Below are positions 1-51,400 of a stretch of 60,568 nt of DNA, in pieces (the stretch's first letter is position 1; each line of letters begins with the position of its first letter). The DNA is taken from positions 1 to 60,568 of IMG/VR virus record IMGVR_UViG_3300030060_006589. One strand, 5' to 3'. The notes below the pieces were generated by a model, which made no database searches, was not told where the DNA came from, and saw only the letters and a list, made by a program, of their open reading frames with translations. This DNA comes from a virus. Its lineage: Duplodnaviria; Caudoviricetes. The position numbers and the translations under genes were made by a program.

Positions 1-1174
1 TCCACCCCGCAGACTCTATATTATTTATGTATTCTGTTATATATAACTCACCTTGATCAGACTGCCCCGTGATAGACCAATCTGTTGAATTATTTATTGC
101 ATCAGGCTCATTAGCATATCCTATTCCATCATCAACATCAGTTACTGATGGATTAAAAAAACGTGCAATTTCTCCTAGCGAGTTGTCAGTAAATAATGAT
201 CCTGTTATATTATCAGTTACCCCTGTATAAATAGGCTGTTCACTTGATGATCTTTTTATATCTACATAGAATAATCCTTCCTCATTCCCTAGTCCATCAG
301 TTGAATAGGCTCCTTCAAACAAAAGAGCATATGCCCAAACTTGACCAGGTGTATATTCTGGATGACTTGTTATATTGTTCAGGGCACCTTCACCGAAAAA
401 AAACTCATTGTTAAAATATGGACTATTATTATCTATAACAGTTACAGTTAATCCTAAAGCAGCTATATTAGCAGAATTTGCATTAACCCAAAAAGTTAGA
501 TAATTATACATGTCTGTAACTGTCTCTCCATTGTATGATATTTGAAAATTGTTAATAGGATCTTGCATTTCATTTAAAGAAAACCCTATAGATATATCAA
601 AAGTTAATAAACACGTATGTGGACGACCCAAGAGCTGGTAGGTTGAGTTTGGAGAAGAAGGAGCACAGGGTAGATCTCCAGCAACACTACTAAGTTCACC
701 TGTTGCGTAACGTTCTGGATAAGGATAAATTGTTTGCTCTTCATATATATCATATCCTAAAATATTTCCATTTATATCAACAGCAGGTGTTGTATCTATA
801 TACGTGAAAGGATCATTACAATCCCTCTCATGCCCATCAAAGTTTTCTACTACAACAGCTTGACCTATACCATCTGGATATTCCGTAGTAATGAAACTAG
901 GATCAAATAGTGAATATCCCCCATTATTAAACCAATAATTAAACCAAGGCATAAAAAGAGTTATTCTTCTTTTACCAGAGGTGGGAGGAACTGGAAAGTT
1001 GTAATTAACCTTTTTGTTTCCCTTTATATTTTCTATAACTCCCTCTGTATTAGCTTCTGAGGAAACGTTTCTTATATTTAAACCGTGGTGATAATCACCA
1101 TTCTTTAAAGCTCTAAGGTCAGTGTCCCTATCTAATCCACCGACAAATATTTTTTTAGACTGTGTACTAGGCAT
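1..1174 (-). CDS. Tail stabilisation/muzzle protein (P22 gp10-like, crAss-type), N-terminal part, runs off the left edge
   Basis: Not in the ORF track. ATG at 1174 reads MPSTQSKKIFVGGLDRDTDLRALKNGDYHHGLNIRNVSSEANTEGVIENIKGN, and I found no stop before base 1. The GGLDxD...GDYxxGLNIR...GVIENIKGN start is typical of these proteins. It follows the ring-protein genes. Confidence 0.75.
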   Translation of the reverse strand, partial: MPSTQSKKIFVGGLDRDTDLRALKNGDYHHGLNIRNVSSEANTEGVIENIKGNKKVNYNFPVPPTSGKRRITLFMPWFNYWFNNGGYSLFDPSFITTEYPDGIGQAVVVENFDGHERDCNDPFTYIDTTPAVDINGNILGYDIYEEQTIYPYPERYATGELSSVAGDLPCAPSSPNSTYQLLGRPHTCLLTFDISIGFSLNEMQDPINNFQISYNGETVTDMYNYLTFWVNANSANIAALGLTVTVIDNNSPYFNNEFFFGEGALNNITSHPEYTPGQVWAYALLFEGAYSTDGLGNEEGLFYVDIKRSSSEQPIYTGVTDNITGSLFTDNSLGEIARFFNPSVTDVDDGIGYANEPDAINNSTDWSITGQSDQGELYITEYINNIESAGW

Positions 1175-1178
1175 TTAA

Positions 1179-1904
1179 TTATAGTTTAGGAGCCTGCTTG
1201 AAAGCTTTTCTTGTAGTCTGCATAGCTTCTTGCTTATTGAACGACTGCATTCTAGCTCTCGCAAGTCTCTTTTGATTATAGTATTCTTTTTTAGCTAACA
1301 TCTTTTCATTCATGTTAATAGCTCTCTTTCTGTATATTGACTTCCAGTATATATATGACTTTAAAGCTTCTTCAGCAAAAGAGTGTATCTTTATTTCATC
1401 ACCCTCTAAATCAGTAGATCCATCAGAAATATATTCTATAATAACAGTTCCTGTTACATTAGAAAATTCAATAGTCTCCTCATCAAAATTCTCTCTGTAA
1501 TATCCATTAGCGTTGTTTCCTCCCCCCTGACCATATCTACCCCACAATCCATCTCCAGGAGTGTTGTCAGTAAATACTGGGTGTTGAGTTTTGTCTTCTA
1601 CATTTGTAGATGTAGCACCATGAACTAGATTTATTCTATCTCTAGCTCCCAAATAGTTTAATTCACCATTATCTCCAGAAGTAGCTATCTTTATATATGA
1701 AACATAATCGCTAGGTAAGCTAACAGTATTTTTATGATCTATAGTAAGCTCTATTGTTTTTATCTGTCTTACAGTGTCAAAATTAAGCTCTTTAAGACCA
1801 CTCATAGCTATATTAAAATACCTTAAATATTCATTTTCACTAGACTTACCTTCCTCTACAAGAAGGTTTTGTATTGCTTCCTCAACTGATATAAACTGTG
1901 CCAT
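1179..1904 (-). CDS. Virion tail/neck ring-type structural protein
   Basis: 241 aa, LPSDYVSYIKI motif, located between the tail tubular genes and the stabilisation gene. Confidence 0.6.
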   Translation of the reverse strand: MAQFISVEEAIQNLLVEEGKSSENEYLRYFNIAMSGLKELNFDTVRQIKTIELTIDHKNTVSLPSDYVSYIKIATSGDNGELNYLGARDRINLVHGATSTNVEDKTQHPVFTDNTPGDGLWGRYGQGGGNNANGYYRENFDEETIEFSNVTGTVIIEYISDGSTDLEGDEIKIHSFAEEALKSYIYWKSIYRKRAINMNEKMLAKKEYYNQKRLARARMQSFNKQEAMQTTRKAFKQAPKL

Positions 1905-1906
1905 TA

Positions 1907-3613
1907 TTAATCTATGTTATCGTTAGTCATATCATCACTAGCATTTTTCATTATCGTTAGTAATTCAACTAAATTTCTTATTATTATTTTTTCATAATCT
2001 GATGGTATAGGATATAGTACATGGTCTGAAAAATTGGTAGATGTACCTATATATTGAACCTTAACTAATTGTCCCCATCTAAGTGTAAAACTATCTAAAT
2101 CATATTTTTTATAAAAATATATTCCTGTACCTCTAGCTGTGTCTCCTGGTTGTGTAGCACCCGTTCCAGGAACGGTATTAACTGTTGGATTTTGATTTTC
2201 CAGATAGTAATATTGTCTACCTGATTTTCTAACAGTTTTATCATAAAGAGGGCTGTGCTCACCTCCATTGGGCATTCTAGTAAATATAGTTGGTTTCCAC
2301 CCTTTACCTCGTCTACCTGATGGTAAACCTTGAGATGCACCACTACCAGCTACATCAAGCGTTAAAGAAAAAGCATTACCTGGAGTGAAAGGCTGTATGT
2401 TAGCCCCTCCCAACGGGTATATCTCTTCAAATTCCACAACATAACCTAAAATAGTCTGTGTTCCTGGAGATTCTCCTGGACCATATTCAACTGACTTTCT
2501 GAGTATTAGATTTTGATCTCTAGATAACTTGTAAGCATGTTCTTGAACGAATAAATCTACCATCTGCTCATTGTCAATAACAGCTTGAGTCTTGTGGTTA
2601 ATAAACTCAGACGTATACATAGTATCATTTATCATAAAACCTATACCATGTGCATTGTCATTAGCTGTAATTAGAGCTTCTGCTGAGTTTTCACTTCCAC
2701 CTTTATTTTGTATTATCCAACCAAGACCTATGTCATTCAATATTTCAGATGAAAAATTAAAAGATGCTCCACCGTACTCATTGTCTGCACCATCATCTAG
2801 TCCGTTATCTCCCACCCCATTAATAGTAAAGTTATCTATTCTAGATCCGTAGTTTGTTTCTAGTGAAATAGCAGCTGTTTGATATGTTCCTACTGCATTA
2901 TCAAAAGTAAAATTGCTTGTTCCAAGATCAGGTATTCCATACTCAATATCAAAGTCTTTAATAAACTTTTTAAATCCAGGACTGTTTGTGAGTGCTTTTA
3001 AGAACTCAACATTTCTTTTTTCAAAACTATCAAAACCTGAGGTATCAATATTAAATTGTATTTTATGGGTTCTAACTCCAGCATATTGATGTGTTTCTGT
3101 AACCCCACCACTGTTTAGTGTTTTTGTTATATGGAAATCAAAAGAAATAGTGTATTTTTTATCCAAAACCTTAGGTCCATATCTAAATAAAATCTCTATA
3201 TCAGAAGTGTTGTAGGTTGTAGGATTTATTTGACCATTTACTACATATCTAGTTTTTTGTTTCGATGGAACTCTTATATCTGTGCTTTCCACCCTTTGTA
3301 TACCCATATCATTAGGTAAGGAAACGTAACTAAAATCTATTGGAGCGAAAATAACACCGTTCTTAACCTCGTCTCTTAAAAGAGGTAATACAGCAGTAGA
3401 TATCCATCCACCATTTATTTCTAATTCACCTTTAGCTGTTGTTGTAGATTTAGTGTATGACCAGTCCATTATTTCAGACTTTATAAGAGCGTCTCTTTCT
3501 TGATCGACTAAAAGCATAACTTCTCTTATATCTATAGAGCTATCTTCTGTTGGATCCCCACCATTTACTATTCTTAATACTTGTTCCGCTATTTTATATT
3601 TTGTTGTTGCCAT
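1907..3613 (-). CDS. Virion tail ring-type protein with a large internal insertion
   Basis: 568 aa. Helical N-terminus and C-terminal YPIPSDYEKIII resemble ring proteins and flank a long beta-rich segment. Confidence 0.5.
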   Translation of the reverse strand: MATTKYKIAEQVLRIVNGGDPTEDSSIDIREVMLLVDQERDALIKSEIMDWSYTKSTTTAKGELEINGGWISTAVLPLLRDEVKNGVIFAPIDFSYVSLPNDMGIQRVESTDIRVPSKQKTRYVVNGQINPTTYNTSDIEILFRYGPKVLDKKYTISFDFHITKTLNSGGVTETHQYAGVRTHKIQFNIDTSGFDSFEKRNVEFLKALTNSPGFKKFIKDFDIEYGIPDLGTSNFTFDNAVGTYQTAAISLETNYGSRIDNFTINGVGDNGLDDGADNEYGGASFNFSSEILNDIGLGWIIQNKGGSENSAEALITANDNAHGIGFMINDTMYTSEFINHKTQAVIDNEQMVDLFVQEHAYKLSRDQNLILRKSVEYGPGESPGTQTILGYVVEFEEIYPLGGANIQPFTPGNAFSLTLDVAGSGASQGLPSGRRGKGWKPTIFTRMPNGGEHSPLYDKTVRKSGRQYYYLENQNPTVNTVPGTGATQPGDTARGTGIYFYKKYDLDSFTLRWGQLVKVQYIGTSTNFSDHVLYPIPSDYEKIIIRNLVELLTIMKNASDDMTNDNID

Positions 3614-11170: not shown

Positions 11171-13195
11171 CTATATTTTCTTAGACATTAATCCTGTATT
11201 CCTATATTTTTTTACAAAGTTAAGGTTTATTTTTGGAATTTTCTTTTCAATTACATGTTTTTGTGCAGCCAAAAGTGCTAAGCTTGACGCAACTGTAGCA
11301 TCATACTTAGTTCTGTTAGTTGGTTCAAACCTACTCCAGTCATCTAGAAGCCTGTTAAAATAACATTTTCCCATCTCTTGAGTGTCTGTATTCATACCAA
11401 CGTAATCATACACATAGCTAGCTACCGCTTCTGTTTGTGCATTTAAAACAGCAACACCAGTGGAAGGTATACCTTTTGTTTTTTGCTTCCTACTATTGTC
11501 CGTATGCGTAGATTCTGGTCTGTCCATTAAATAATTATAATAACCTCTTCTTTCAAAATACTTTATTATTCCTATTTTATTATTTTCTATAAGTATAGGG
11601 CACCCGTAAAACACACAGGTTTTCAATACGTCCTCATAAAACATTTCTGCCTTAGGAGGTCTAGCTATATATTCACAAACAAACTGATTAGAAAAATCAT
11701 CTATCATACTAAACTTTTTGTAAACATAACAAGCAGCATCAGATCTTCTTCCGTCAGTAGTTGTGTCGTGATCGTAAGGGTCACATCCAGCTACCATCTC
11801 TATATCATTACCAGGAGCCTTTTTATTGTAAATCATTTTAGACTTGTTTCTTCTTTCTTCTGGAGGTATCCAAGAAACTCTCCATCTCCCTTGAGATCCT
11901 GGTTTCCACATTACGGAAGTATCTTTTTCTCCATTCTTCCAAATAAAGTCTCCTTTTACAATTAAGTTTCTAGCCTCTTCATTATAATCCATCTGTTGAT
12001 ATATTCTTTCAACATCAAAAGGACTGTATCTTGAGTCACTTCTAAAAGCTTCATCTATAGTAAAAGGTCTCTGTCTCTTTTCTTCTGAAAGCTTAGTAGT
12101 GTTCCCTTGATAAGCGTCTCTTATATTCTGTAAATATTCTCTAGCTCCTATATTTTTACCTGTAAACTTAGCCTGTTCTTTAGTTGGTTTGTCAACAACA
12201 GAAAATCCATATTCATCTATAAACCCCTCATACCCATCATAAGCTGGAGTAAAGTAAGAATACATTCCCGATCTAGTTCTTCCGTTAGCATCCCTTTCCT
12301 CTATGTTGCTATCAAACCATATATTCTTAAAATTCTCACCTCCAGAAACTTCCAGTTCATTAACAGTAGAAGGCATAAAGCATCTTCCTATTATTTTATC
12401 TCCCAGCGTTAAACATGATCTTACAACTTCCCAATTTTTTTCTACACTTGCCTCTGTCCACTTACCAGCCTCATCACATAAATACCTTATTAGCTTAACT
12501 GAGTCATATGAGTTTTCTCTAGTGTTTCTCCAATCTATCCTACTATTTAAAGCTTCTGACTTAGTAACCTTAGCGTAGTTCTTTGTTATCTTTTGTCCTG
12601 GAGTATTAAAACTAAGTGTACTCTTCGGATTATCGCTACCATCAATTATTGGTTGAAAAAAGAAAGGTAAACTTCTAAACATGTAAACCAACTTGTCTGT
12701 AAATAAAGACTTGGCATCAGCACCCGTTTTACTTGTTATGCCTCCATGAGAATTATATCTAGCTGTTATTTCATGTAGAAGCATAGCTGCCCCTTTATAA
12801 GAAGCTCCCTCTCTACGGTGTTTAACCATAATCATACCAAAACAATCAGGATCTTGTTTGCATATTTCCCAAAAGATAAAGAACCTCCTATCTCGATCTC
12901 TATACTCAGGATATCCAATATCCATCTTACACCAGTTTAAATAATAGTAATGCTCTCCTGTTATATAGGTGGGTTCTCCATTATTCATAAACCATACACC
13001 TTCATCTCTTCTTTTAAACTCTTGATCTATAAACCATGAATATTTAGGAACAGTATCCTCATTAAGCCCCTCAGGCATTTCAGTTCTTCTCCACTTCTGA
13101 TTCTTCTTTTTTAGATCTGAAAATAATATATCCTTTTTGCTAGGCTTAACAGGAAGCTTAAATTTTAAACCATTTACTTTTATATACCCTGTCAT
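11171..13195 (-). CDS. terL: Terminase large subunit
   Basis: KHRREGAS Walker A variant, YLCDEAGKW Walker B, GCDPYD and YDATVAS nuclease motifs. ATG 13195 preferred because a TATATTTG element at 13217-13224 overlaps the track's start at 13219. Confidence 0.92.
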   Translation of the reverse strand: MTGYIKVNGLKFKLPVKPSKKDILFSDLKKKNQKWRRTEMPEGLNEDTVPKYSWFIDQEFKRRDEGVWFMNNGEPTYITGEHYYYLNWCKMDIGYPEYRDRDRRFFIFWEICKQDPDCFGMIMVKHRREGASYKGAAMLLHEITARYNSHGGITSKTGADAKSLFTDKLVYMFRSLPFFFQPIIDGSDNPKSTLSFNTPGQKITKNYAKVTKSEALNSRIDWRNTRENSYDSVKLIRYLCDEAGKWTEASVEKNWEVVRSCLTLGDKIIGRCFMPSTVNELEVSGGENFKNIWFDSNIEERDANGRTRSGMYSYFTPAYDGYEGFIDEYGFSVVDKPTKEQAKFTGKNIGAREYLQNIRDAYQGNTTKLSEEKRQRPFTIDEAFRSDSRYSPFDVERIYQQMDYNEEARNLIVKGDFIWKNGEKDTSVMWKPGSQGRWRVSWIPPEERRNKSKMIYNKKAPGNDIEMVAGCDPYDHDTTTDGRRSDAACYVYKKFSMIDDFSNQFVCEYIARPPKAEMFYEDVLKTCVFYGCPILIENNKIGIIKYFERRGYYNYLMDRPESTHTDNSRKQKTKGIPSTGVAVLNAQTEAVASYVYDYVGMNTDTQEMGKCYFNRLLDDWSRFEPTNRTKYDATVASSLALLAAQKHVIEKKIPKINLNFVKKYRNTGLMSKKI

Positions 13196-25119: not shown

Positions 25120-25635
25120 TAAAAAAAATGTGAGATAAGTGTAGGTTGGGGATAATAATATAATGTAACACACGTCCGAGCAATACCGAAACCGATATTT
25201 TTTAGGGGGGTAGGTCACTATATCTATGTATACACGATTTGAAACGTCGATTTTTGCAACTATTATCTAAATACATACATATAATATACACCACTACCCA
25301 CACCCCAAATAATAATATATATATATATACATACCCGAAGTCTGTTTGTGTTTTGTTTTGATTGTTCGACAAAGAATCCTAGCGATTGACTATGTTTTGT
25401 GTAACACGTTCAAGCAGGGGCTAACTCCCTTACCAATTTAATACATAATCTACCTAACATACTGAAATCAAATTTAAGCCACATTTTCTTACACCTAAGA
25501 AACTTTCTATCTATTGTGAAGCTCTACTATTAAAACTCTCTGTTTTTTCATTAGAATCAATCTACCTCTGATACCTCATATAGATATTTATTTACAACTT
25601 TTTTCCTCGAGAGAATGAAAATAATTTACATTTTA

Positions 25636-25668
25636 TTTGGAAGTTATTTGTTTTTTACTTTACATTTG
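25636..25668 (+). promoter_or_regulatory. Early promoter, Bacteroidota sigma70 consensus
   Basis: TTTG (25636-25639), 21 nt, TACATTTG (25661-25668), upstream of the first plus-strand early ORF. Confidence 0.75.
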
Positions 25669-25716
25669 TACCATACGATTGACACAAGGTTAATCACTAA
25701 CTAAAATTATACAACT

Positions 25717-25905
25717 ATGAAAAACTTAATGCAATATCTTGAACAAGAACTTGAAGAAACTTACAAATTTATTGGAGATGATTATCAAAAAATATCTAAC
25801 GAAACGGACTGTGATGAGGACATGATGAGAGCATATGATTTAGGTAGATTTGATACACTACAACGAATTAAACGATTATTAAATAACAAAAAAATTACTA
25901 ACTAA
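25717..25905 (+). CDS. Early hypothetical protein
   Basis: 62 aa, preceded by the repeated start motif. Confidence 0.7.
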   Translation: MKNLMQYLEQELEETYKFIGDDYQKISNETDCDEDMMRAYDLGRFDTLQRIKRLLNNKKITN

Positions 25906-25917
25906 AATTATACAACT

Positions 25918-26226
25918 ATGACTAATGAACAATTATTAAATAAGTATAGAAAGATACTTAATCAGATTGCTACAATAGGCGATACAGGTGGAACTCATAA
26001 CGATACTTGGCGATATAATTGGCTAGGAGCAAAAGAAGATTTTTATGACCTTGAAGATTCTATTGGAGAAGGTAATACTATTAATGGTATTCAAGTACAA
26101 GGTATAACAGATGGCTCTTGTATAAGTATAATGAAAAGATTAGATAAGGCACTAATTGTAGCAAAGACAATAAGCAAGATAGACAAACTTGAAGATATTC
26201 TAGATGAGAATATACAATACGGATAA
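25918..26226 (+). CDS. Early hypothetical protein
   Basis: 102 aa, preceded by the repeated start motif. Confidence 0.7.
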   Translation: MTNEQLLNKYRKILNQIATIGDTGGTHNDTWRYNWLGAKEDFYDLEDSIGEGNTINGIQVQGITDGSCISIMKRLDKALIVAKTISKIDKLEDILDENIQYG

Positions 26227-26255
26227 ACTAAATTACTAACTAAAATTATACAACT

Positions 26256-26408
26256 ATGAATGAATTAATCGCACAATTTGAAATGGAACAAGCTAACATG
26301 AGTACAAGTGTAAGCGACACAATCAACACTATCAACAAGGCTTTGACTCCGTTTAGCAATAAACAAGCACATATTGACATAATGAACAGTATTACTGACG
26401 AGGTCTAA
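26256..26408 (+). CDS. Early hypothetical protein (50 aa) whose 3' end overlaps hammerhead 1
   Basis: Not in the track. MNELIAQFEMEQANMSTSVSDTINTINKALTPFSNKQAHIDIMNSITDEV*, preceded by the 24-nt start repeat. Confidence 0.65.
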   Translation: MNELIAQFEMEQANMSTSVSDTINTINKALTPFSNKQAHIDIMNSITDEV

Positions 26409-26521
26409 TAGACCGAAACAAGTCCCACACTAACCCTCTGAGTATGATAATAAATACAGAGTATAAACAAACAAGAATTATCTGAAAGAAAGACAAAAAT
26501 AAAAGGGACTTGTCTAATACT
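26388..26521 (+). ncRNA. Type I hammerhead ribozyme with an extended stem III loop
   Basis: Stem I AGTATTA (26388-94)/TAATACT (26515-21), core CTGACGA (26395-401), stem II GGTC-taata-GACC, GAAA (26415-18), stem III CAAGTCCC (26419-26)/GGGACTTG (26505-12), GUC triplet with cut after C26514. Confidence 0.9.
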
Positions 26522-26541
26522 AATAACTAAAAACTATAACT

Positions 26542-26736
26542 ATGCACTTTTTAACAGATGAACAACAAGAACAAATCTTAATAATTAGCGACGTATTAAA
26601 CACCTCTAATGTATGGACAAAATTAGAACGAAGATTAGATATAGAACTAGATTGTAATAGCGATATATTTAGCGAGATTGAAGAATTTATCTTAAACAAA
26701 TTAGAGGAGATGCAAAGTATTACTGATGATTGCTAA
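26542..26736 (+). CDS. Early hypothetical protein whose 3' end overlaps hammerhead 2
   Basis: 64 aa ending MQSITDDC*, preceded by the start motif. Confidence 0.7.
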   Translation: MHFLTDEQQEQILIISDVLNTSNVWTKLERRLDIELDCNSDIFSEIEEFILNKLEEMQSITDDC

Positions 26737-26775
26737 TAGCATGAAATAGGGGACAATGTTCCCCTATATAATACT
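26716..26775 (+). ncRNA. Type I hammerhead ribozyme (compact)
   Basis: Stem I AGTATTA (26716-22)/TAATACT (26769-75), core CTGATGA (26723-29), stem II t-TGCT-aat-AGCA-t, GAAA (26743-46), stem III TAGGGGA/TCCCCTA, AUA triplet with cut after A26768. Confidence 0.85.
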
Positions 26776-26794
26776 AAAACTAAAGATTATAACT

Positions 26795-27001
26795 ATGAAA
26801 GCATACATATTAAAACTGAAATACCTATTTATTAATAACATTGGGAAACTAGATTTTCATGGGGAAGACTTTACAATACAACACATTGAGATGATGTTTA
26901 CAGATAGGTCTTTTCAAGATGTTATATTAAATAACTATTACAACGGAACGAGTGTACTAGAAACATACGAAGAACTAGCAGAAGGATTTATTACTAACTA
27001 A
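26795..27001 (+). CDS. Early hypothetical protein
   Basis: Start at ATG 26795 after ATTATAACT. The track's 26756 start lies inside the ribozyme. Confidence 0.65.
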   Translation: MKAYILKLKYLFINNIGKLDFHGEDFTIQHIEMMFTDRSFQDVILNNYYNGTSVLETYEELAEGFITN

Positions 27002-27012
27002 AAACTATAACT

Positions 27013-27285
27013 ATGAAAAGAACTAGGAAAAGAACTAGAGTAAAAAGTATAGAGGAACTAAAGACAATATGCTCAGATGATTACTTTCAAGATTTCTACA
27101 TATCTTTAGCCAACGGACTAGCGAGAAGTAGTAAAGAAATAAGATACAATAAAGAAGAAGACATATGGGAGATAATGAATGGTATTGATGGAATTTATTT
27201 AGAATACTCTACAACACAATTAGAATCCTATACTAATATAATCCAAGCAATAGATAACGGAAATTTAATCCACGAAAAATACTAA
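27013..27285 (+). CDS. Early hypothetical protein
   Basis: 90 aa, preceded by the start motif. Confidence 0.7.
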   Translation: MKRTRKRTRVKSIEELKTICSDDYFQDFYISLANGLARSSKEIRYNKEEDIWEIMNGIDGIYLEYSTTQLESYTNIIQAIDNGNLIHEKY

Positions 27286-27301
27286 CTAAATAACTATAAC
27301 T

Positions 27302-27610
27302 ATGAATACAATAAAACTAACAGACAGAGAACTAGAACTAATAAAAGATATGTTAATTGAAAAAATAAGATACAAAGGGGTACAGAAATTAATGGTCAAG
27401 ATCCAAAATCAACTACAACAACAACTTGTGTACAGGGACACCGATTATGGATATATATTTGAAACAGATGAACAACTTGTAAAGTATTTAAGAGGACTAA
27501 CACTAGATGATGAATACAACGATTGTACAGATGAATTTCTAATAGCTGAATCACTAGAACATAATTGGGTAAAGCAAATAAAACGAAGTGAATTAACAGA
27601 TACAGAATAA
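27302..27610 (+). CDS. Early hypothetical protein
   Basis: 102 aa, preceded by the start motif. Confidence 0.7.
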   Translation: MNTIKLTDRELELIKDMLIEKIRYKGVQKLMVKIQNQLQQQLVYRDTDYGYIFETDEQLVKYLRGLTLDDEYNDCTDEFLIAESLEHNWVKQIKRSELTDTE

Positions 27611-27626
27611 AATAAAGTGAAAATAA

Positions 27627-27658
27627 TTTGCATATATGAAATATAATTCGTATGTTTG
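27627..27658 (+). promoter_or_regulatory. Early promoter, Bacteroidota sigma70 consensus
   Basis: TTTG (27627-30), 20 nt, TATGTTTG (27651-58). Confidence 0.75.
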
Positions 27659-27681
27659 TAAAACAATCAACAACTAAAACT

Positions 27682-27918
27682 ATGAGAACAAGAATGAAAG
27701 TAGACTATTACCCGTGTATTGATGAATTTGCAGAAGAACTATATCATAAAAGATTAGATAATGCAATTCCTAAAAGAATAACAAAGAAATTTTGCTTAGA
27801 AATTCTGAAGTTTATGTCCTTTAAATATGTTGGACTTGGTGGTTGCGACTACCAAACTACTCACGATGAAGAAGATTATAAACTTGCAGATGAACTAATA
27901 GATAAATATAACTTATAA
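27682..27918 (+). CDS. Early hypothetical protein
   Basis: Likely start ATG 27682 (MRTRMK) after AACTAAAACT. The track's start lies within the promoter. Confidence 0.6.
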   Translation: MRTRMKVDYYPCIDEFAEELYHKRLDNAIPKRITKKFCLEILKFMSFKYVGLGGCDYQTTHDEEDYKLADELIDKYNL

Positions 27919-27930
27919 AACTAACTAACT

Positions 27931-28056
27931 ATGAAAAAGGATATAAATTTTTACAGAGAATGTCTAAGGATAGAATTAGCAAAACCTCTACACCAAACAG
28001 ATTTTATGTATATGAGACACTTAGATAATATAATAAATGAACTTAAAACTAAATAG
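27931..28056 (+). CDS. Small early protein (41 aa)
   Basis: Not in the track. MKKDINFYRECLRIELAKPLHQTDFMYMRHLDNIINELKTK*, after AACTAACTAACT. Confidence 0.55.
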   Translation: MKKDINFYRECLRIELAKPLHQTDFMYMRHLDNIINELKTK

Positions 28057-28058
28057 CT

Positions 28059-28295
28059 ATGACTAATAAAGAATTTACATGTTTCAACGAATGGAAGAAA
28101 CAACTAATAGAATACAAATCTAAAATACATTGGATAGATAAGAATGGAAAGAATCATTACTTATGGTCTAAGAAACCAACACTCGATAAAAATGGTAATG
28201 TAGATTATAGAAAACTATCTTACACTAACAAAGTAAACAGTATAAATACATATCGTTGGATATGTGAAAATAAACCTAAATTATTAATAAAATAG
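28059..28295 (+). CDS. Early hypothetical protein
   Basis: 78 aa basic ORF within the operon. Confidence 0.6.
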   Translation: MTNKEFTCFNEWKKQLIEYKSKIHWIDKNGKNHYLWSKKPTLDKNGNVDYRKLSYTNKVNSINTYRWICENKPKLLIK

Positions 28296-28364
28296 TAGTG
28301 TGTAGTTTTTAGTTTGATTTGGGGGGAGAACTTTCTCCCTCTTAATCATCAACTAACACCACTA
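28296..28364 (+). other. Long imperfect intergenic hairpin
   Basis: Nested pairings TAGTG/CACTA, TTAGTT/AACTAA, TGATT/AATCA and GGGAGA/TCTCCC. Confidence 0.55.
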
Positions 28365-28404
28365 TCATCAACTAAAACAATTACTAACTTAAAAATATAA
28401 AACT

Positions 28405-28665
28405 ATGAAAGAAAGAAAAAGTTTCGACTTATATAAATCAATTACAAGAAAAAGAGATATAGTAGATTACATAATGGACTACGAGTCTGGAAATATGTCC
28501 GATCTAGATATATTAAGAATGTTTAGCGAACTTATTAAAAATGGGATGGCTTGGAGTTTACAAGGACATTATGGAAGAACTGCAAATAGTCTAATTGAAA
28601 GCGAATACCTGTTAGCTAATGGAGATATTAATGAGGGGAAACTAGAAGATATAGGTATCCTTTGA
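28405..28665 (+). CDS. Conserved phage hypothetical protein
   Basis: IMDYESG...FSELIKNGMAWSLQGHYGRTANSLIE, a motif I recognise from diverse phages. Function unknown. Confidence 0.65.
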   Translation: MKERKSFDLYKSITRKRDIVDYIMDYESGNMSDLDILRMFSELIKNGMAWSLQGHYGRTANSLIESEYLLANGDINEGKLEDIGIL

Positions 28666-28831
28666 TACAAATAGCTACTAACATTAAAGAAGTAGGAGTA
28701 GAAGTAGAAGATAAGAGATATATATATTTTTATATAAAAATTATATAACTAACATAATTATCTACTAATAATGGTCGGAAGGTACAAGAAAAAAATGAGA
28801 ATGTCAAGTATTAACAAAAAAAAATAAAATT

Positions 28832-42499: not shown

Positions 42500-45400
42500 T
42501 TAATTATTACCTCTAATACGTTTTAATTTTTCTTCATCAGCTGCTGACCACATTCTCATCATATACAGAACTTCTGGGTTTTCCATTATATTTTCTATAT
42601 ATTCAGGATCTTCTTTTTCATATCTTTTTCCATTACTATCTCTACCTTCCAATGTGTGTCTCAAGTCTGTCTGCTGCTGTTCATTTAATCCTGTTTTACC
42701 ATTTTTTAACATCCACATCATATAAGCTGCTGTCATTGGGTTTCCTTGTTTATAATCTGTAATAGCTTGCTGCACATCAGAACTAGCTGTTGAGTAATTC
42801 CAATTCATAATAACCATTCTATTTATTCTCTTTTTTATTTCTCCCCTATTCCACATCAGGTCATCTATTACCTCATCTTCTCCAAGTCTACCACGCAGCT
42901 CCTCCTCTACCTTATTTATTATTTCGTTTGATCTAGAAAGGAACATTTCCGCAGGGTCAAGATATCCATCCCCATCTAAATCTGAAAGACGCATAGTTTT
43001 ACCCTCAGAATCTATCCATTCATTTGTGTCAGGATCTTGTCTTACATTCATTTCTTTCATAACAGCATCATAAGAAAGTTTTAAATTGGCTTGGAACCTC
43101 TCTTCTGTTTTTCTTACATGATCCGCTTCAGATTGTAGTTTTGACTTTTTGTTTCTAAGAAGGTCAATGTCCCCAACATATCTTTTTGTTGCTGGACCTA
43201 AAAAGTCATTCATAAATAAATTCATTTGATTACCATACTTCTCCTTTTCAGTGTCACTTAATCCTCCTTGACTAGCCACATACATATGGTTAATAGCGGC
43301 ATACCAGGGGTTTCTATCCATATTAGTAAATAAAGATCCTAAAGCTGACTTTGTAGTTGTAACTGGAATACCACCCTCAGCTAATCCTATTTTGTCAAAC
43401 CCTTTAGAAATATCTTTTAAAATTCTATCTTCATATGAATCAGACAACCCTCTGTATTGATTGTAACCATTTTCTGCTTCAAATTTATCTGACCAAACAG
43501 GTTTATTGTAGAAAGCATCATAGTTCCATAAAACTTTTGCAGTTGCATTTAAAAGAGGATTTGAAGCCATTAAATCTCTAGGATTACCAGCACCAGTAGG
43601 TATAGCTTTCTGTAGTATTCTACCGTAAGAATTTTTATCCTCACCTCTACCCCAAGGAGTATATGAGAAAACATCTTTTCCTAAATTTCTAAAATCTGAC
43701 CCCGTTACATGTTTAAACATCATGTCTTCAGTTATAGCTCTAAACACATTCATTCTAGCATCACTAGGTATTTTAAAGTATCTAGGAGTTATAATTTTAT
43801 TGTCAGATAACTGTTCTTTTATTTCAGCTATTCTAGCATCTCTTTCTGGACCTACCTCCATGCTTTTAGCTATTCTAAGTTGATCTTGTAAAGCTGTTTC
43901 TTTTTCTTGACTAATTATATCTGTAACCTTACCAGGTAGTATTACGCAGTGGTAATTCTCTAAGTCATAATCATTTATATGATTAATAAAATATCTTCTA
44001 TTTTCGTATAACTTTTGTCTTATTTCCTTTTCTGACTCAGTATCACCATTAGCTATAGCTTGATTTAAATTCTCTTGTAATCTCTCTTCTTCATCTTCAT
44101 CTAATATATCAAAATACTGTAAGTTATAAGCCATAAGACCAGCTCCAAATGTAAGAGCCCATTGTGCTGTATCCCAAGCAAATTGAGCGGGGTTTTCAGA
44201 AACATATCTAACACTCTTGTCTAACACCTGTGACGCAGCATTAAGATAAGCAAAACCCATAGCGTCAACAGCCTTGATAGCAGTTCCTCCATTATTAAAG
44301 TTAGCGTAATCAACAGCGTTAGCTACAGCTCTTTTCTTGATAGCTATAAGATCTTCTCCTGTAGGCTCTTGACCATCATTCTTATCTTTGTATTCTTGTA
44401 CATATTTTTTAGTCCATCTTTTGTAATTAGCTAATCTACCTGTCATCTCAGATGTTGAGTTTGGAGCAGAAATAAATCTTTTAAATATATCCCAACCACT
44501 CTTAGTGTTAGGATTTACATAAGGAGCCTCATCTCCATACAAACTATTCACCTGTTCTCTTGCAGCTTGTTGTCTAGCGTCAAACTCAGGGAGTTTATTT
44601 GCGGGATCTGCCATTATTTCTCTAACTCTCTTTTCTAATTGAACCTCATCAATAGCTGTATCTTCTACATAATCCATCAAACCGTATCTCGTCATAAACT
44701 CTAAAGATCCTCCAAGCATCTTATACTCTTGACTAAGTGGACCGTTTGTTGCTGCATCTATCATAACAGACAGCCAGTCTTTTCCTGCTACCGCAAATTT
44801 TGTAGCTAAAGTTGATCCATACCACTTACCATTATAAGTGTCTGTAAATATAACTTGTTGAGCGAAGTCGTAGAAAATATTAGCAATAAAAAATGCAGGA
44901 GCACCAACACCAGTAGCAAACACCTTAAGTATACTTCCAGCACGCCTAAGAGGACTAAGAGCTTTTCTTGCCCACCCAGATGTAGGAATCCCGTCTCTAG
45001 GATTAGCAAATAAGCTTTTATAAGCAGCATTTTTCATAGCAAATCTTATATTCTTTCCATTCTCACTGTAGCTCATTTCAATGTGACCATCTGCAACTTG
45101 CTCACCATCTTTTAATATGTAGCCAATATCTTCACCTTTAAGCTTTAGTCCATTTATATATTCAAAACCCTGACTAGCTATAGCAGATATCATATTGTAT
45201 ATACCTTTTCTAACTTCATTTTCAGCTCTTAATTTAGCTCCTATAGCTAATGTATTCTGAAGAAGCTTAACAGGATCCATATATAAAACTTGATCACTAC
45301 CCTGCTTTAAGGTTTTTATAGGAGACTGCATATGATCTCCCTTCTCAGATCTTCCTGACCTTCTTTGACTAATTATATCTCTCTCAGCGAATATTACATG

Positions 45401-48400
45401 GTCAACAAATTTTCTAGGATTATATTTTAAATTTTTAAGCTCATTATAAGTTGCTTCATCTATAAGACCAGCTTCAAAGTTTCTTTTTAACTCATTACGA
45501 TACTCTTCAAAAAGTTTGTCAGTAGTTTCTCTTATTATATTAAATCTATCGCCCTGTTCTTCCTTCATTGAGTCTATCATACCTTGTGCAAGCTCTTTGT
45601 TCATCATCATGTAACCTTCACCTTTAGGGTTTTTAGTTTCAGGATGTTTTAGTCTCCAAGGGAACTTTTTCTTCTTAGTAGTTGGGTCTAGCACTGGTTT
45701 AATTCCAGGTTTCATTCTTTCACTAATGTCTTTACCATCCTTATCTTTAGTTAAATATTCTAAATAATAACCTGAACCATCCTCATTTTTCTTAATATTA
45801 ATATTAGAGTTGTCTTTATATATGTTATCTAATTCACTCTCAGCTTGTTTTATTGCTTCTTTTATAGCAGATTTCTGATCTTTTTTAGCTTTACCAAGTT
45901 TTTTAGATAAAGAATTTAAGTTTTTAATAATAGCATCAGCTGCTGACTTTTGAGCATCATATAAATTATCAATCTCTATTATTCTCTCTAATGTAGATAG
46001 TTGACCCACTAGTTTTATTTGAGCTGAAGATAAAGTTCCCCATATTCTTTTATTAGCCTGGTCTATAAATTCTTTAGCTGTTCCTGGAACTGTTAACCAT
46101 AAAGTTATAGAAGCGAGAGCGTTAGAAGCTGTCTCTCCAAGGTTTAAATCCTTGCCAATGTTTCTGATAGATCTTTTTATTCTATACTTACTATCTACTG
46201 TAAGCTCTTTTAAAGCAACAAACTTATCATCTAAAGTTTTTCTAAAGTTCTTTAGTCTTCCAAAGAAATTATCTTTACCTCTTGAGAATGCCGCATCCTG
46301 ATCTTTCTGTAAATTAGATAGAGCTTCAGCATAATCTTGTAGAGTCCAATCCTTAGTGTCAACTTCTGAGTTTGAAGAATCTTCTATTTGATCCTGTTCT
46401 TCTCTAGTTTTTTCTAAGTGTTCATCTAGTTCATCTAATTTAGATGCTTCTTCTTCTGTCAGCTCAGTTTCTCCAGCCATATTGGATTGTTTAGGATTGA
46501 ATAACCCTTCTTGAGTTGATAAAAAGTCTCTAAATAATTCTCTTATCTCAGCTTCTTGATTGGGGACAAATTTATCTCCCTCAGCCTGAGCTTTCTTTAA
46601 GTAATCTATAGCTGCATCTATAGCTGTAGCAACACTAGAAGTGGCTCTAAGAGTAAGAGAAGCTGTTTTTAAGGCAGCCCTAATAATAGGTACAGACATA
46701 AATGGATCTGCATAAGCATTACCACCTAAGTCTTTATATATCTGATCTAGTTTATCTGCAAAGTCTGTTAAGATTTGAAAACGCTGAACGCTTCTGCTAG
46801 AATACTCATCTCCTGTTCTGAGATCTGAGATGTCCTGGGCGTTGTCCCCGCTATTAATAGCTCTTTGCCTTCTGGCAAGCTCTCTATTGATGTCTGTGTC
46901 AAACGACTTTTCTTGTCTTGTAGTTGTTTCGTATTCCCCATTTGTAAAAACTTTTGTATTAATATAACCAAATTCTACGGTATTAAAAATATCATCACCG
47001 TATTTTTCTTGTATTTCTCTTATTGCTTTATTTACTCCTTCAGTCCATTTAGAACCAAGGTTATCTATATTTTCCATCGTTAAACCCTCACCCATTGGCT
47101 CCATAAGATACTCAGGAACAAATTGCATTGACATGCCTACAACCTCTGCTTGTTGATTATAGTTAAGAGTTAAACCCTCCACGCCATTAGGACCAAAATG
47201 CTCATTAGCAAACTCTCTAGCTTCAGTAAGAGTCATAGGCTCAGAAAATTCTATTCTTCTAAAAGGTCTAGCATTAGGATCTTGCTCTGTTGTAACCTTA
47301 GATATAAATACAGATTCTTGCTCATTATTGATAGCTGTAGTTAACAACTCATCAACTAAAGGAGATATATCTGTTCCAGCATCAACTAGCATTTCTAAGT
47401 TTATAGTATCTTCTGTTTGATTCATATATATACCTTCTGACTGATATGGTCTACCCATAGCACCTAACTGCTTAACTATAGCGTCTAAGTTCTGAAGTGC
47501 TTGATCCATTCTAATAGACCCTTGCATAGTTTCAGCTATGACAGCAGCAATTTCTTCATCGGTAGCATTTCTTTCTAAAGCCTTTTGAACAGCTCTAGCC
47601 GCAGCACTATATATTCTGTTTTTCTGTTCTGGACTTGTATTCCCTATAAATGTACTAGCACCTATCATAACTCTATCTGTTATGTCAGCAGACCTAACAG
47701 CATTTTCCATAGTTGACTGCTCTTTAGCTCTCACATCCCCAGTAAATCCAGACTCGTTATATATTTGTTTTTCTATAAACCACATAGAAGCCTGTAGATC
47801 GTCAGGGTTTAAGTTTAACTTCTTAGCAGCTATAGCGTATACACTTTGTGCAAAAGCAAAATCTTTATTACCTACTGTTGTTTCTTGAGACTGTCTTCTT
47901 CTAAATGGTACAAACCCTCCTTGAGAATATAATATTCTTCTCATATTTCTAGCAGCCCAAACATCAATAGTAGCACTTCTATCTCTTAAAGATAAGTTAT
48001 TGTAAAACTGTCCTGTTTTATTAGCTGGATTATTAGATAACCAATTACCATATAAAACCCTAACAATACCTGAAGTAACTACTGGAAGACCGAATGATTT
48101 CCCGTTTTTCTTTTTTATAGCAGCTACAACATCTTGATCAGAAGAAGCCTGTCTTATAAGTTCTTTAGCTTTAAATAAAGCTTTTTTGCCTGTACCAAAA
48201 ACACCTTGATCATACTGAGCCATTATATCTTTAACTTTTGCATCGTACACTTCTAAAGACTCGTCAAACTTACCCTCTGAGTAAGATCTTAAAACTTCAG
48301 TAGACTTTCTAAAGATAACCTGAGGCGGTGCCTGTGGAGATGTAACACCTAGCAACTCAAAGAATATTGGTGCATTTCCACCAAACTTCTGTTGTATTAA

Positions 48401-51400
48401 GTCTTTTGTTTTACTGTACCACCCTGTAGCCTTTTCTAAATCTATTTTAGAACTATTAACGTTAAAGTCTTGAATAAGTAAATTTGAAGCTAATTCTATC
48501 TTTTGTTGCTCTGACATACCCGCAAATATAGGTGCTGCTCCAAAATTAAAAGAAAGAGTTTTTATTACAGGTTTGCCATTCTTCAACACCACAAAACCTC
48601 CATCAAATAATATTTGCATAGGATCTGACAAGCTAGGGTCGTTTTTCATGTCAACATTATTATGCTGATCTATTTTTCTCTGTAAGTTATCTATTTGTTT
48701 AAGTTCATTTTTAGTATAATTACCTCTAACAACTTTAGGGTTAACTCTTTGTTTAGCTATTTTATATATCTCTTTAGCTTCTATCTCATTATACTGATCT
48801 GGATACCTTTCTTGTAAAGCTTCAAAGAATTTAGCTCCAGTCACTTTATTAGTTATGGCTTCCTCAGCAAACTTAACAACCCCATCATTATTAAATAAGA
48901 ATCTTTTTTTAAGAGACTCTATACTTTCATCTTTTACTTCATCTAATCCCTTTATAGACTCAACAGCATTATTGAAAGCTACAGAAATAGCCTGTCCCGC
49001 TTTTAAGCTTGCTTTTAGGGTTTTTAAGAAGGTTTCCCACGCCACTGGTCCTAGACCCATGGTGATATCCATATATAGGTTTTTGCCTTTATTTCGGTTT
49101 ATTCTATCTAATTCTGAGTCAATACCTCTAATTGTTCTATCTACAAGAGTCTCTGTGTTTTCTGCTGATTTTATATTTGGATCAAGATCAGATTCATGTG
49201 GGTTTGTAGATGCGTTTATTAAGTCTATTACACCAGCTAAATCTTCTGTTATCTGATCGGTAGAAGCCATTAGATCCATAACTGGAAGACCCTGCATAGA
49301 TACTTTTAAAGTTTTTATAGCTTCCTTTTTTGTTCTTCCTAATAATGTGCCAGAAGTTGATTCAACCCATTCTTGTTTTCCGTATTTCTTAGATAAAGAA
49401 AAAGGTCTTCCATTTACAGTTCCTTCGTATAATTTAGTAGATCTATTGTATTTAAATGGAGTGTCTTGAACAATTTCAGCTCCCGCTTCTGTATCTACCT
49501 CTGCTTTTGCTGGTTGTTGGAATACAAACTCATCAGGAAGTAATCCTATTTTTTGATCTGCAAAAGGTCTATCTTGAGGTCTTACATAATCAGGATCCCC
49601 CTTCTGAGGAATACTACCGTCCTCTCTTCTTAAACTTTGATTAAAATTAACCCATGAGTTTTGACCTCTAGTTTCTGTTGTCATAGCTCTCCTAGCGTCA
49701 TGACTAAACATTCTAGAATGATTAAGCCAAGCATTTTCTTCCCCCTTAACACCAAAACCATTACCTAATTCTGTATGACCAAAAAAGTCGTGAACAGCTC
49801 TAAATAAATCGTTAACTAATAAAGGTTCTCCATTAACATCAGTAAATTCAGTTCCTTGTAATAAAGGGTTTTCTTCTCTCATTTGATCTGATATCTGCTC
49901 CTGACCAAACCCAGCCTCTGTTCCAAATATATATAAATGCTTATTATCTCTAACATCCTTTATCATTTCATCGCTATTAGCATACGGTTCTCCTTTACCC
50001 TTATACACTTCTATAGTATACCCAGCATTAATAAGAGACTGATACTGCATAGTTGTTTCATTAGCTAGAGCTGTGTAAGCTTTTTTAACTTTTGGATCGT
50101 TAGGATTATTTTCCATAGACTCATAAGCGTCAGCTATATTTTTAGAATTTTGCTCATTAATCTCAGTAACTGGCTGAGGATCAGAATGCTGTATACCTAG
50201 TTGAGGGGAATTAGTATTTATATAGTTTCTTGTTATTGAAGAAGTTTCTGGATTAGGATCATTAAACAATCTATTACCAGGATTTACAGAGCTTGTATTA
50301 CCAGCAGAACTTCTTACTGACTCATCTTCAAATAAAGTTAACTGTCTACCACCAGAAGCTGGCATAGGACTTGTTATTCTTGAAATTAAATCACTTAACT
50401 CTTGATCATTATTAATAGATAAATTTACTTTACCAGATTTTATATCTTCCACCACAGAAGGGTTACTCAACATGCTTAATACTTCATTTTTAGATATAGA
50501 TGTTCCAAAGTCTGCATCAGCCCCACTAATAACATATAAAGGTTTTTTGTCACGTTCATCATCTTTAACTGTAGGCAAACCTCCAGGACCTTCTCCAATA
50601 TTAAAAGCAGGACCTCCAGGAGTATCTCCTCCGTCATCATCACCGCCATCTAAAGCACTTAAGTGATCTGGAGTTTCACTTACCATGTTATCCCAATCTT
50701 CATCCCCCCATAATCTTAATTGTTCTCCTTGAGGCGACTTTTTGTAATCATCCATAACACCTAAGAAGTCTTGAACTAATTTAGTATCTTCAGGATTTAA
50801 ACTACCTGAGTCTAACATATCTTGAAAGTTCTGCTCTATACTGTTAGCTGTCAATAATGTAAAACCACTAGATAACCCTACACAAATAATAGCTGTAGTC
50901 ATTAACTTATTTATTCTCTCGTCTTTTGATTGACCAACAGTCTGCATTAAAGCTTCCTCCCAGTTAAAACCCATATTAGTTAAGTTCTCAACAAACTCAC
51001 CTGAATACTCAGCTAATAACTCAGCACCACCACCCGCAAGTATTCTTGGAGGTAGAGTAGTGATTTTAACTCCTGGTTTACCAAAGTTTCTATATAATGT
51101 TAATAACCCTCTAGTTACAGGAGTTCTTTTAAATAAAGAGTTTACAATTTGTTCTGTTGCTCCCTCAGCAGCACCCATTCTCCATGTAGCCTGATCACCT
51201 GATGTCATCTCAAAAGCTACAGCTCCACGAACTACATTCTCACTAAAATTCCACCAAAATTTACCTACATCTGTAGTCTTAGCAGCAACCATAACATTCT
51301 TAATCATAGGCACCTTGGTAAGAGTTTTTAACCCAGCACCAGCTATAGGCATAGTAGCAATCATCTCAATCATAATAGGAAGTGTAGTACCCACACCTTG

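Follow-up and report, generated by a model that had tools for sequence, protein, structure and literature searches.

The locus and its genes

The DNA analysed here, called the window throughout, is an entire IMG/VR virus record of 60,568 nt with 34% G+C, rated 100% complete. Among its products are a portal protein, virion proteins, a primase/helicase and an exonuclease, and a single ORF of 3,902 aa occupies positions 42500-54208 on the minus strand. The portal protein is 30-34% identical to the portals of Cellulophaga, Maribacter and Flavobacterium phages, and from this likeness we infer a host among the Flavobacteriia for this tailed, marine-type phage. A same-strand run of small ORFs begins at 25717, 3' of a divergent intergenic region of 0.5 kb, and two hammerhead motifs lie inside this run (Table 1). 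The intergenic region carries at 25634-25668 (+) a box similar to TAnnTTTG, preceded at about 23 nt by a TTTG, which we take to resemble the Bacteroidota promoter consensus. When positions 25700-28700 were compared with GenBank phages by blastn in its distant mode, no match was found. Searches of Pfam and PHROG with 10 small neighbouring ORFs gave no family for genes A, B and C.

Table 1. Features of the hammerhead region (window positions)
Feature	Position	Strand	Basis
Gene A, 50 aa, 3' end overlapping hammerhead 1	26256-26408	+	ORF list, homologues
Hammerhead 1	26388-26521	+	Descriptor; model R1 28.6 bits with stem III mis-closed; Rfam partial
Gene B, 64 aa, last 6 codons and stop forming the 5' half of hammerhead 2	26542-26736	+	ORF list, homologue
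Hammerhead 2, whole type-I motif, 60 nt	26716-26775	+	Sequence, MFE fold, descriptor, model R1 44.1 bits
Stem I 5' strand, 7 nt, A/U apart from one G	26716-26722	+	Perfect complement of 26769-26775
Core C3-A9, CUGAUGA	26723-26729	+	Sequence
Stem II and loop II	26730-26742	+	Four standard pairs inside a U-U, 3-nt loop
Core G12 A13 A14	26743-26745	+	Sequence
Stem III hairpin, A15.1 (26746) to U16.1 (26767), 8 bp, 6-nt loop	26746-26767	+	Sequence, fold, subfamily alignment all paired
A17, predicted scissile bond 26768/26769	26768	+	Position within motif
Stem I 3' strand, would be the 5' end of the downstream RNA	26769-26775	+	Sequence, fold
A-rich leader, ending in the gene-start motif and the gene C ATG	26776-26797	+	Motif count, subfamily identity 81%
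Gene C, 68 aa, first gene on the predicted 3' cleavage product	26795-27001	+	91% homologue

The two hammerheads are interlocked with the genes around them. Genes A and B each take their last codons from the stem I and core of a hammerhead, and each ends with a TAA-TAG double stop in loop II. In the case of gene B, positions 26716-26722 also encode C-terminal residues, and the stops TAA (26734-26736) and TAG (26737-26739) fall within 26730-26742. Between the predicted cut of hammerhead 1 and the start codon of gene B there are 27 nt, and between that of hammerhead 2 and the ATG of gene C there are 26 nt; the latter ATG is found 19 nt past stem I of hammerhead 2. A 10-nt gene-start motif, which ends in the start codon, occurs four times in the window against 0.35 expected (at 26535, 26788, 27006 and 27295, all on the plus strand). 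It precedes four consecutive small genes; a hammerhead is present at two of these junctions and absent from the other two. This motif is probably a shared leader for translation initiation that works without a Shine-Dalgarno sequence.

Hammerhead 1 has the core CUGACGA, a canonical stem II starting with G10.1-C11.1, the same loop II as hammerhead 2, and a GUC triplet with C17 at 26514. Its stem III has 9 bp, and the loop on top is a 78-nt insert with a hairpin of its own; the insert is conserved in a related contig, L278. The stems I of the two hammerheads are identical and stand 328 nt apart. Because of this identity, the 254-nt piece between the two predicted cuts (26515-26768) could re-form hammerhead 2 by using its own 5' end, and a circular RNA was considered. 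The idea was rejected: the MFE fold of the piece leaves its 5' end unpaired, and in relatives stem I sometimes differs between tandem hammerheads.

Structure of hammerhead 2

The initial annotation described a compact fold with CUGAUGA, GAAA, a 7-bp stem I and a 7-bp stem III, and these elements can be read directly from 26716-26775, except that the count for stem III holds only if the pair A15.1-U16.1 is left out; with that pair the stem has 8 bp. The core is complete, comprising C3 U4 G5 A6 N7 G8 A9, G12 A13 A14, A15.1-U16.1 and H17 (26723-26729, 26743-26746, 26767-26768). Three helices leave this core in both the MFE and the centroid structure of the 60-mer, namely stem I of 7 bp, stem II of 4 bp and stem III of 8 bp. 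At the start of stem II, U10.1 (26730) and U11.1 (26742) form an unpaired U-U, just as had been noted at the outset, and the cleavage-site triplet is indeed AUA, with A17 at 26768.

How well does the RNA fold into this shape? For the isolated 60-mer, the MFE and centroid structures are both the hammerhead junction, at -16 kcal/mol with z = -3.0, and 2 of 200 shuffled sequences fold as well. In the MFE structure of a 180-nt context, stem III and part of stem II are kept, and the 5' strand of stem I is paired elsewhere. Stem I contains a single G-C pair. Inspection by eye for a tertiary contact or pseudoknot between the flank of stem I and loop II revealed no consistent complementarity.

According to the available part of Perreault 2011 (PMC3088659), G10.1-C11.1 is the most conserved stem pair of the hammerhead, and the screen reported there discarded mispairs adjacent to the core unless activity was shown. 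The same text reports that stem II of natural hammerheads can begin with U10.1-U11.1, and that in earlier mutagenesis U-U is the most active and best-tolerated mispair. With U26730 facing U26742, hammerhead 2 falls outside the standard-pair criterion for 10.1-11.1 in that screen; a standard pair at this place is a screening rule and no catalytic requirement. A literature search on hammerhead position 10.1-11.1 returned no paper. As for the triplet, the accessible portion of Carbonell 2006 (PMC1636495) reports that, of four triplets compared in the ELVd(+) hammerhead, AUA was slowest at 10 and at 50 uM Mg; natural AUA hammerheads demonstrably cleave. The expectation in the initial annotation that these changes would alter the rate thus agrees with what these parts of the literature say on AUA (PMC1636495) and on U-U (PMC3088659). 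Since both features are already published there, neither the U-U nor the AUA is new in itself.

Test against chance and model scores

Could the motif be a chance resemblance in A/T-rich coding sequence? The bare core pattern offers some ground for this suspicion, as its 3 occurrences in the window, where 1.34 are expected, are not significant: a count of 3 was reached by 16 of 100 shuffles. Nor does Rfam help: with Rfam 15, nothing reached the gathering score over the whole window, and over 26000-27500 at E <= 10 nothing was reported for hammerhead 2, the sole match in that interval being a partial one of Hammerhead_3 to hammerhead 1 (15.6 bits).

A descriptor of the type-I hammerhead was then used, which asks for the core, a stem II of at least 3 bp (the first pair may be a mismatch), a stem III of at least 4 bp, H17 and a stem I of at least 4 bp. 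It has two matches in the window, both on the plus strand, starting at 26388 and 26716. In 300 dinucleotide shuffles searched on both strands, the same descriptor gave 8 loose matches, and 0 in which stems I and III both have at least 6 bp. Further, 13 canonical relatives served to build a covariance model, R1, from which hammerhead 2, hammerhead 1 and the closest homologue, L101, were excluded. Run with filters off, R1 places hammerhead 2 as the top match in the window, at E ~2e-10 by a rough calibration, and the best unrelated match in the window scores 12.9 bits. The only pair of hammerhead 2 that R1 flags as non-standard is 10.1-11.1. Moreover, the intact motif is present on 8 other contigs, as described below. 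Thus the shuffles, the R1 score and the recurrence on other contigs refute a chance resemblance, to which we assign a negligible probability. Hammerhead 2 is a genuine hammerhead motif.

Canonical type-I hammerheads in related contigs

To what family does this motif belong? Two pattern scans of IMG/VR were carried out. The first, keyed on stem I and the core, yielded at least 6 full type-I hammerheads by the descriptor among 114 loci listed, and the second, keyed on both strands of stem I, at least 11 full hammerheads among 114 loci listed; most matches of both scans, among those listed, are due to chance. A search anchored on a neighbouring protein of 482 aa gave 29 loci and new hammerheads in L232 and L247 only. 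At least 20 distinct canonical type-I sequences are recognized by the descriptor, and all of them combine G10.1-C11.1 with GUC. R1 adds three canonical members, two in the contig G007 and one in a cultured phage; over 162 loci it found nothing beyond the descriptor matches, and loci L003-L090 were scanned by the descriptor only.

In the alignment of 13 members, 95.6% of the cells are paired and 15 of 18 pairs are changed on both sides, which none of 500 shuffles matches, while slid controls give 25-42%. This covariation is partly circular, because the members were filtered for pairing beforehand. An ATG follows stem I at a distance of 16-30 nt in 20 of 22 family members, among the matches listed. 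Hammerhead 2 shares these family features, having a significant R1 score and the same ATG spacing within a same-strand run of small ORFs. Overlap of an ORF with the hammerhead is not universal in the family.

Two members deserve separate mention. The cultured Flavobacterium phage vB_FspP_elemoA_5-9B (MT497111.1; L287/L288) has an unannotated canonical type-I hammerhead at 27357-27416 on the minus strand, scoring 47.2 bits with R1. It sits between small minus-strand genes, and an annotated plus-strand CDS, 27343-27450, overlies it; this CDS is probably spurious. The other is G007 (the contig of L209, a fragment), where six type-I hammerheads lie within 3 kb (54-2932, plus strand), each before a small gene. 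This array is the densest among the contigs examined. A literature search on Flavobacterium and Cellulophaga phages with a hammerhead or ribozyme found no mention of a hammerhead.

The U-U subfamily

The initial annotation proposed to survey the U-U variant in viral metagenomes. The pattern used for this comprises the 5' core, U at both 10.1 and 11.1, a loop and GAAA; it fixes 19 of 60 positions, most of the core included, and because of this, decayed copies are invisible to it. In viral contigs the pattern has 2 matches, both of them full hammerheads, and in metagenome contigs 6 of 21 matches are full hammerheads. The variant does recur: counting the window, 9 contigs carry it, in 7 distinct sequences.

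Six of the seven forms are compact. Among these, N7 is U or C, loop III is variable, the pair 10.2/11.2 is either U-A or A-U and so changed on both sides, and one base of stem III varies, giving G-C or G-U; there are no other differences. When the six compact forms are aligned (7 distinct rows), all 133 of 133 cells are standard pairs, and the core, U16.1, H17 and the 19 stem pairs are intact. The 41 hammerhead columns that are free of the search pattern have a mean pairwise identity of 89% across the subfamily, compared with 43% in the upstream flank, 38% in the downstream coding sequence and 81% in the leader; the genes on either side could not be aligned. Covariation is thin: one pair is changed on both sides, and 256 of 500 shuffles reach that number. 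The support for the U-U subfamily is conservation, not covariation.

The seventh form, L278 (267-425, minus strand), has a U-U stem II together with a long insert in stem III, a homologue of the insert in hammerhead 1. At its base, stem III has a different sequence that is fully compensated; the descriptor accepts this form, with a single A-G mismatch in the stem. Its site is GUA, which keeps A17. A further scan keyed on stem III and stem I, with the core left free, recovered just the 2 viral contigs known before, whose cores are intact, and the same scan of bacterial and archaeal genomes gave 0 matches. Among the matches listed, A17 accompanies U10.1-U11.1 in 7 of 7 distinct sequences, and C17 accompanies G10.1-C11.1 in 20 of 20. 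This association may reflect descent.

Is the U-U form then a dead or nearly dead derivative, kept as a hairpin and leader element or as a target of a host RNase? The hairpin and leader would in that case protect an mRNA end or serve translation. The closing pair of stem II is lost, R1 scores of 44 and 40 bits compare with 50-76 for canonical relatives, and the 180-nt context fold loses stem I; also the leader is itself conserved (81%) and stands before genes that have no hammerhead. A relic would hardly be expected, however, to keep the core, U16.1, H17 and every stem pair of the compact alignment, or to re-compensate stem III as L278 has done. The changes observed are confined to positions that are free in a working hammerhead. 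In addition, natural hammerheads with U-U and, separately, with AUA are reported in the available parts of PMC3088659 and PMC1636495, and those with AUA cleave. We therefore consider a relic improbable, though it keeps some weight.

Exchange of hammerhead forms at the same gene junctions

The gene neighbourhoods of the two forms were compared by tblastn. Homologues of gene A lie directly 5' of a U-U hammerhead in L101, L278, L263, L260, L273, L266 and L276, and gene A lies 5' of a canonical hammerhead in the window (hammerhead 1) and in L054. Altogether, gene A homologues precede hammerheads on 8 related contigs at 10 loci, two of which are duplicates of one contig. On the other side, a gene C homologue with 91% identity is directly 3' of the U-U hammerhead in L260 and L273, and a gene B homologue with 48% identity comes right after the canonical hammerhead in L100. 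Thus the order in the window is gene A, hammerhead 1, gene B, hammerhead 2, gene C, and in L260 and L273 it is gene A, U-U hammerhead, gene C. The same junctions can carry either hammerhead form, and the conserved blocks mark the joints of a small-gene mosaic.

Mosaics are seen inside the ribozymes as well. L101 matches the window at 85-94% identity and carries one hammerhead (12945-13003), whose 5' part, with C at N7, aligns with hammerhead 1 and whose remainder aligns with hammerhead 2. To judge from such alignments, the mosaic hammerheads of L101 and L278 suggest recombination inside the conserved ribozyme blocks. This raises an alternative at the DNA level, in which the block of hammerhead and leader, 60-85 bp long, would function as a recombination junction for early-gene cassettes and RNA activity would be secondary. 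Both the gene orders of the window and of L260 and L273 and the composite hammerhead of L101 are in accordance with it, and at least 6 different gene starts directly follow the U-U module across its 9 contigs. But recombination at any conserved repeat yields the same pattern even if it is not what selection acts on, and the complete ribozyme core with its compensated stems is left unexplained. A primary function at the DNA level is very improbable.

How many hammerheads a phage carries also differs. The U-U form is the sole R1 match in G006, a record of 64 kb with a completeness rating of 100%; elsewhere, the complete record G001 has one R1 match, a canonical one, and the fragment G007 has six within 3 kb. 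The result for G006 bears on a proposal of the initial annotation, that the two ribozymes of the window may be tuned differently. In its stronger form, U-U and A17 would have been selected to lower the rate, making hammerhead 2 a slow or conditional ribozyme whose cleavage would either compete with ribosomes that terminate in loop II or depend on the Mg2+ level, and would set the ratio of linked to separated gene B-gene C mRNA differently from hammerhead 1. AUA is the slowest of the four triplets at low Mg in ELVd(+), as far as the available text of PMC1636495 goes, and the mispair affects what the accessible part of PMC3088659 calls the most conserved stem pair; the stop of the upstream ORF lies within loop II in both window hammerheads, and, among the matches listed, the mispair and the base at position 17 are associated without exception (U-U with A17 in 7 of 7, G-C with C17 in 20 of 20). 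Yet the association can be explained by common descent, and the overlap with an ORF is not universal in the family. Moreover, the U-U form stands at a junction where relatives have the canonical one and is the sole hammerhead of G006, so no fast partner is specifically coupled to it. For the same reason, the U-U form is better seen as an interchangeable allele than as one half of a tuned pair. On these sequence comparisons, a tuning of hammerhead 2 relative to hammerhead 1 is not favoured, although a difference in rate is plausible, and selection for a slow ribozyme appears unlikely.

Proposed function of hammerhead 2

What, then, does hammerhead 2 do? In our judgement it is likely an active type-I ribozyme, which would cut an early polycistronic phage RNA after 26768. 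The RNA would fold into the three-way junction and cleave itself after A26768. The upstream product would be the mRNA of gene B, whose 3' end would comprise the hairpins of stems II and III and carry a 2',3'-cyclic phosphate, and the downstream product would be the mRNA of gene C, with a 5'-hydroxyl and a 26-nt A-rich leader before the start codon. Ends of this kind, a 2',3'-cyclic phosphate and a 5'-OH, alter the sensitivity of RNA to 3' exonucleases and to RNases that depend on the 5' end, and hammerhead cleavage uncouples neighbouring cistrons. The combination of U10.1-U11.1 with A17 would represent a conserved allele class with the role that canonical G-C/GUC hammerheads have at the corresponding junctions in related phages. 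The rate of hammerhead 2 is probably somewhat below that of its canonical relatives. The motif, its departure from chance, its family and the pattern of conservation are established by the comparisons above, and the cleavage itself, the chemistry of the ends, the rate and any effect on mRNA stability or translation are what we infer. Several points should be counted against an active ribozyme: stem I is weak, the context fold loses it, no contact between stem I and loop II was seen by eye, Rfam has no match, covariation in the subfamily is thin, and both stem I and stem II have to be opened by ribosomes as they complete gene B. In addition, the N7 of G10.1 is a ligand of the A9/G10.1 metal site, and U10.1 cannot supply it.

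A more elaborate reading goes further and supposes that U-U and A17 are functionally coupled. The A9/10.1 metal site and the environment of the scissile phosphate might have been remodelled by them, the hammerhead might act as a switch that senses translation, and the blocks might double as junctions for the shuffling of cassettes among marine phages. Because the upstream stop codon lies within loop II, cleavage under this reading would occur only when ribosome traffic on gene B is low, and the switch would decide whether gene C remains linked to gene B. A different ion dependence or a lower rate would be expected. We regard this combination as quite unlikely.

A U-U subfamily that replaces the canonical form at the same junction is a ready-made in vivo test of the 10.1-11.1 pair, and the overlap of ribozyme and stop codon is a simple system for the competition between translation and self-cleavage. 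As for annotation, a whole set of short type-I hammerheads in phages of the Flavobacteriia type escapes Rfam at its present thresholds.

Comparison with known hammerheads

Compared with the type-I hammerhead of Rfam (RF00163, clan CL00010), hammerhead 2 has the same C3-A9, G12-A14, A15.1-U16.1 and H17, and likewise stem I is open and stems II and III are capped. It differs in its short, open, A/U-rich stem I of 7 bp, which has no internal loop, and in the U-U at 10.1-11.1. RAGATH-1 (RF03152) and Hammerhead_HH9 (RF02275) give best partial scores for canonical relatives and none for hammerhead 2. The best Rfam scores of those relatives all stay below gathering (Hammerhead_1 27.4 against 34, RAGATH-1 34.3 against 56.3, HH9 26.1 against 52). 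What is new here is a conserved U-U/A17 subfamily of type-I phage hammerheads below the Rfam thresholds.

With the U10.1-U11.1 hammerheads in the available part of PMC3088659, hammerhead 2 shares the mispair and its place, while here the mispair is fixed in 7 sequences and always occurs with A17. With the ELVd(+), sCYDV-RPV(+) and cscRNA(-) hammerheads, as described in the accessible text of PMC1636495, it shares AUA and a U15.2-A16.2 pair that replaces C-G. Those belong to viroid or satellite RNAs and serve rolling-circle processing, whereas hammerhead 2 is of type I and lies in the mRNA of a DNA phage.

Parallels to the proposed function are found among prophages and haloviruses. Clustered prophage hammerheads flank genes and cleave in vitro within 2-kb transcripts, and the haloviruses HF1/HF2 have a variant hammerhead, 13 nt ahead of a start codon, which coincides with a mapped 5' end, according to PMC3088659. 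As in the window, several of these hammerheads bracket single small genes and have the cleavage site just before a start codon, and the role proposed for them in that text is the cutting of polycistronic RNA, as we propose for hammerhead 2. Unlike the prophage and HF1/HF2 hammerheads as far as they are described there, hammerhead 2 has a 5' half that is made of the last codons and stop of the upstream ORF, and it belongs to a different phage lineage.
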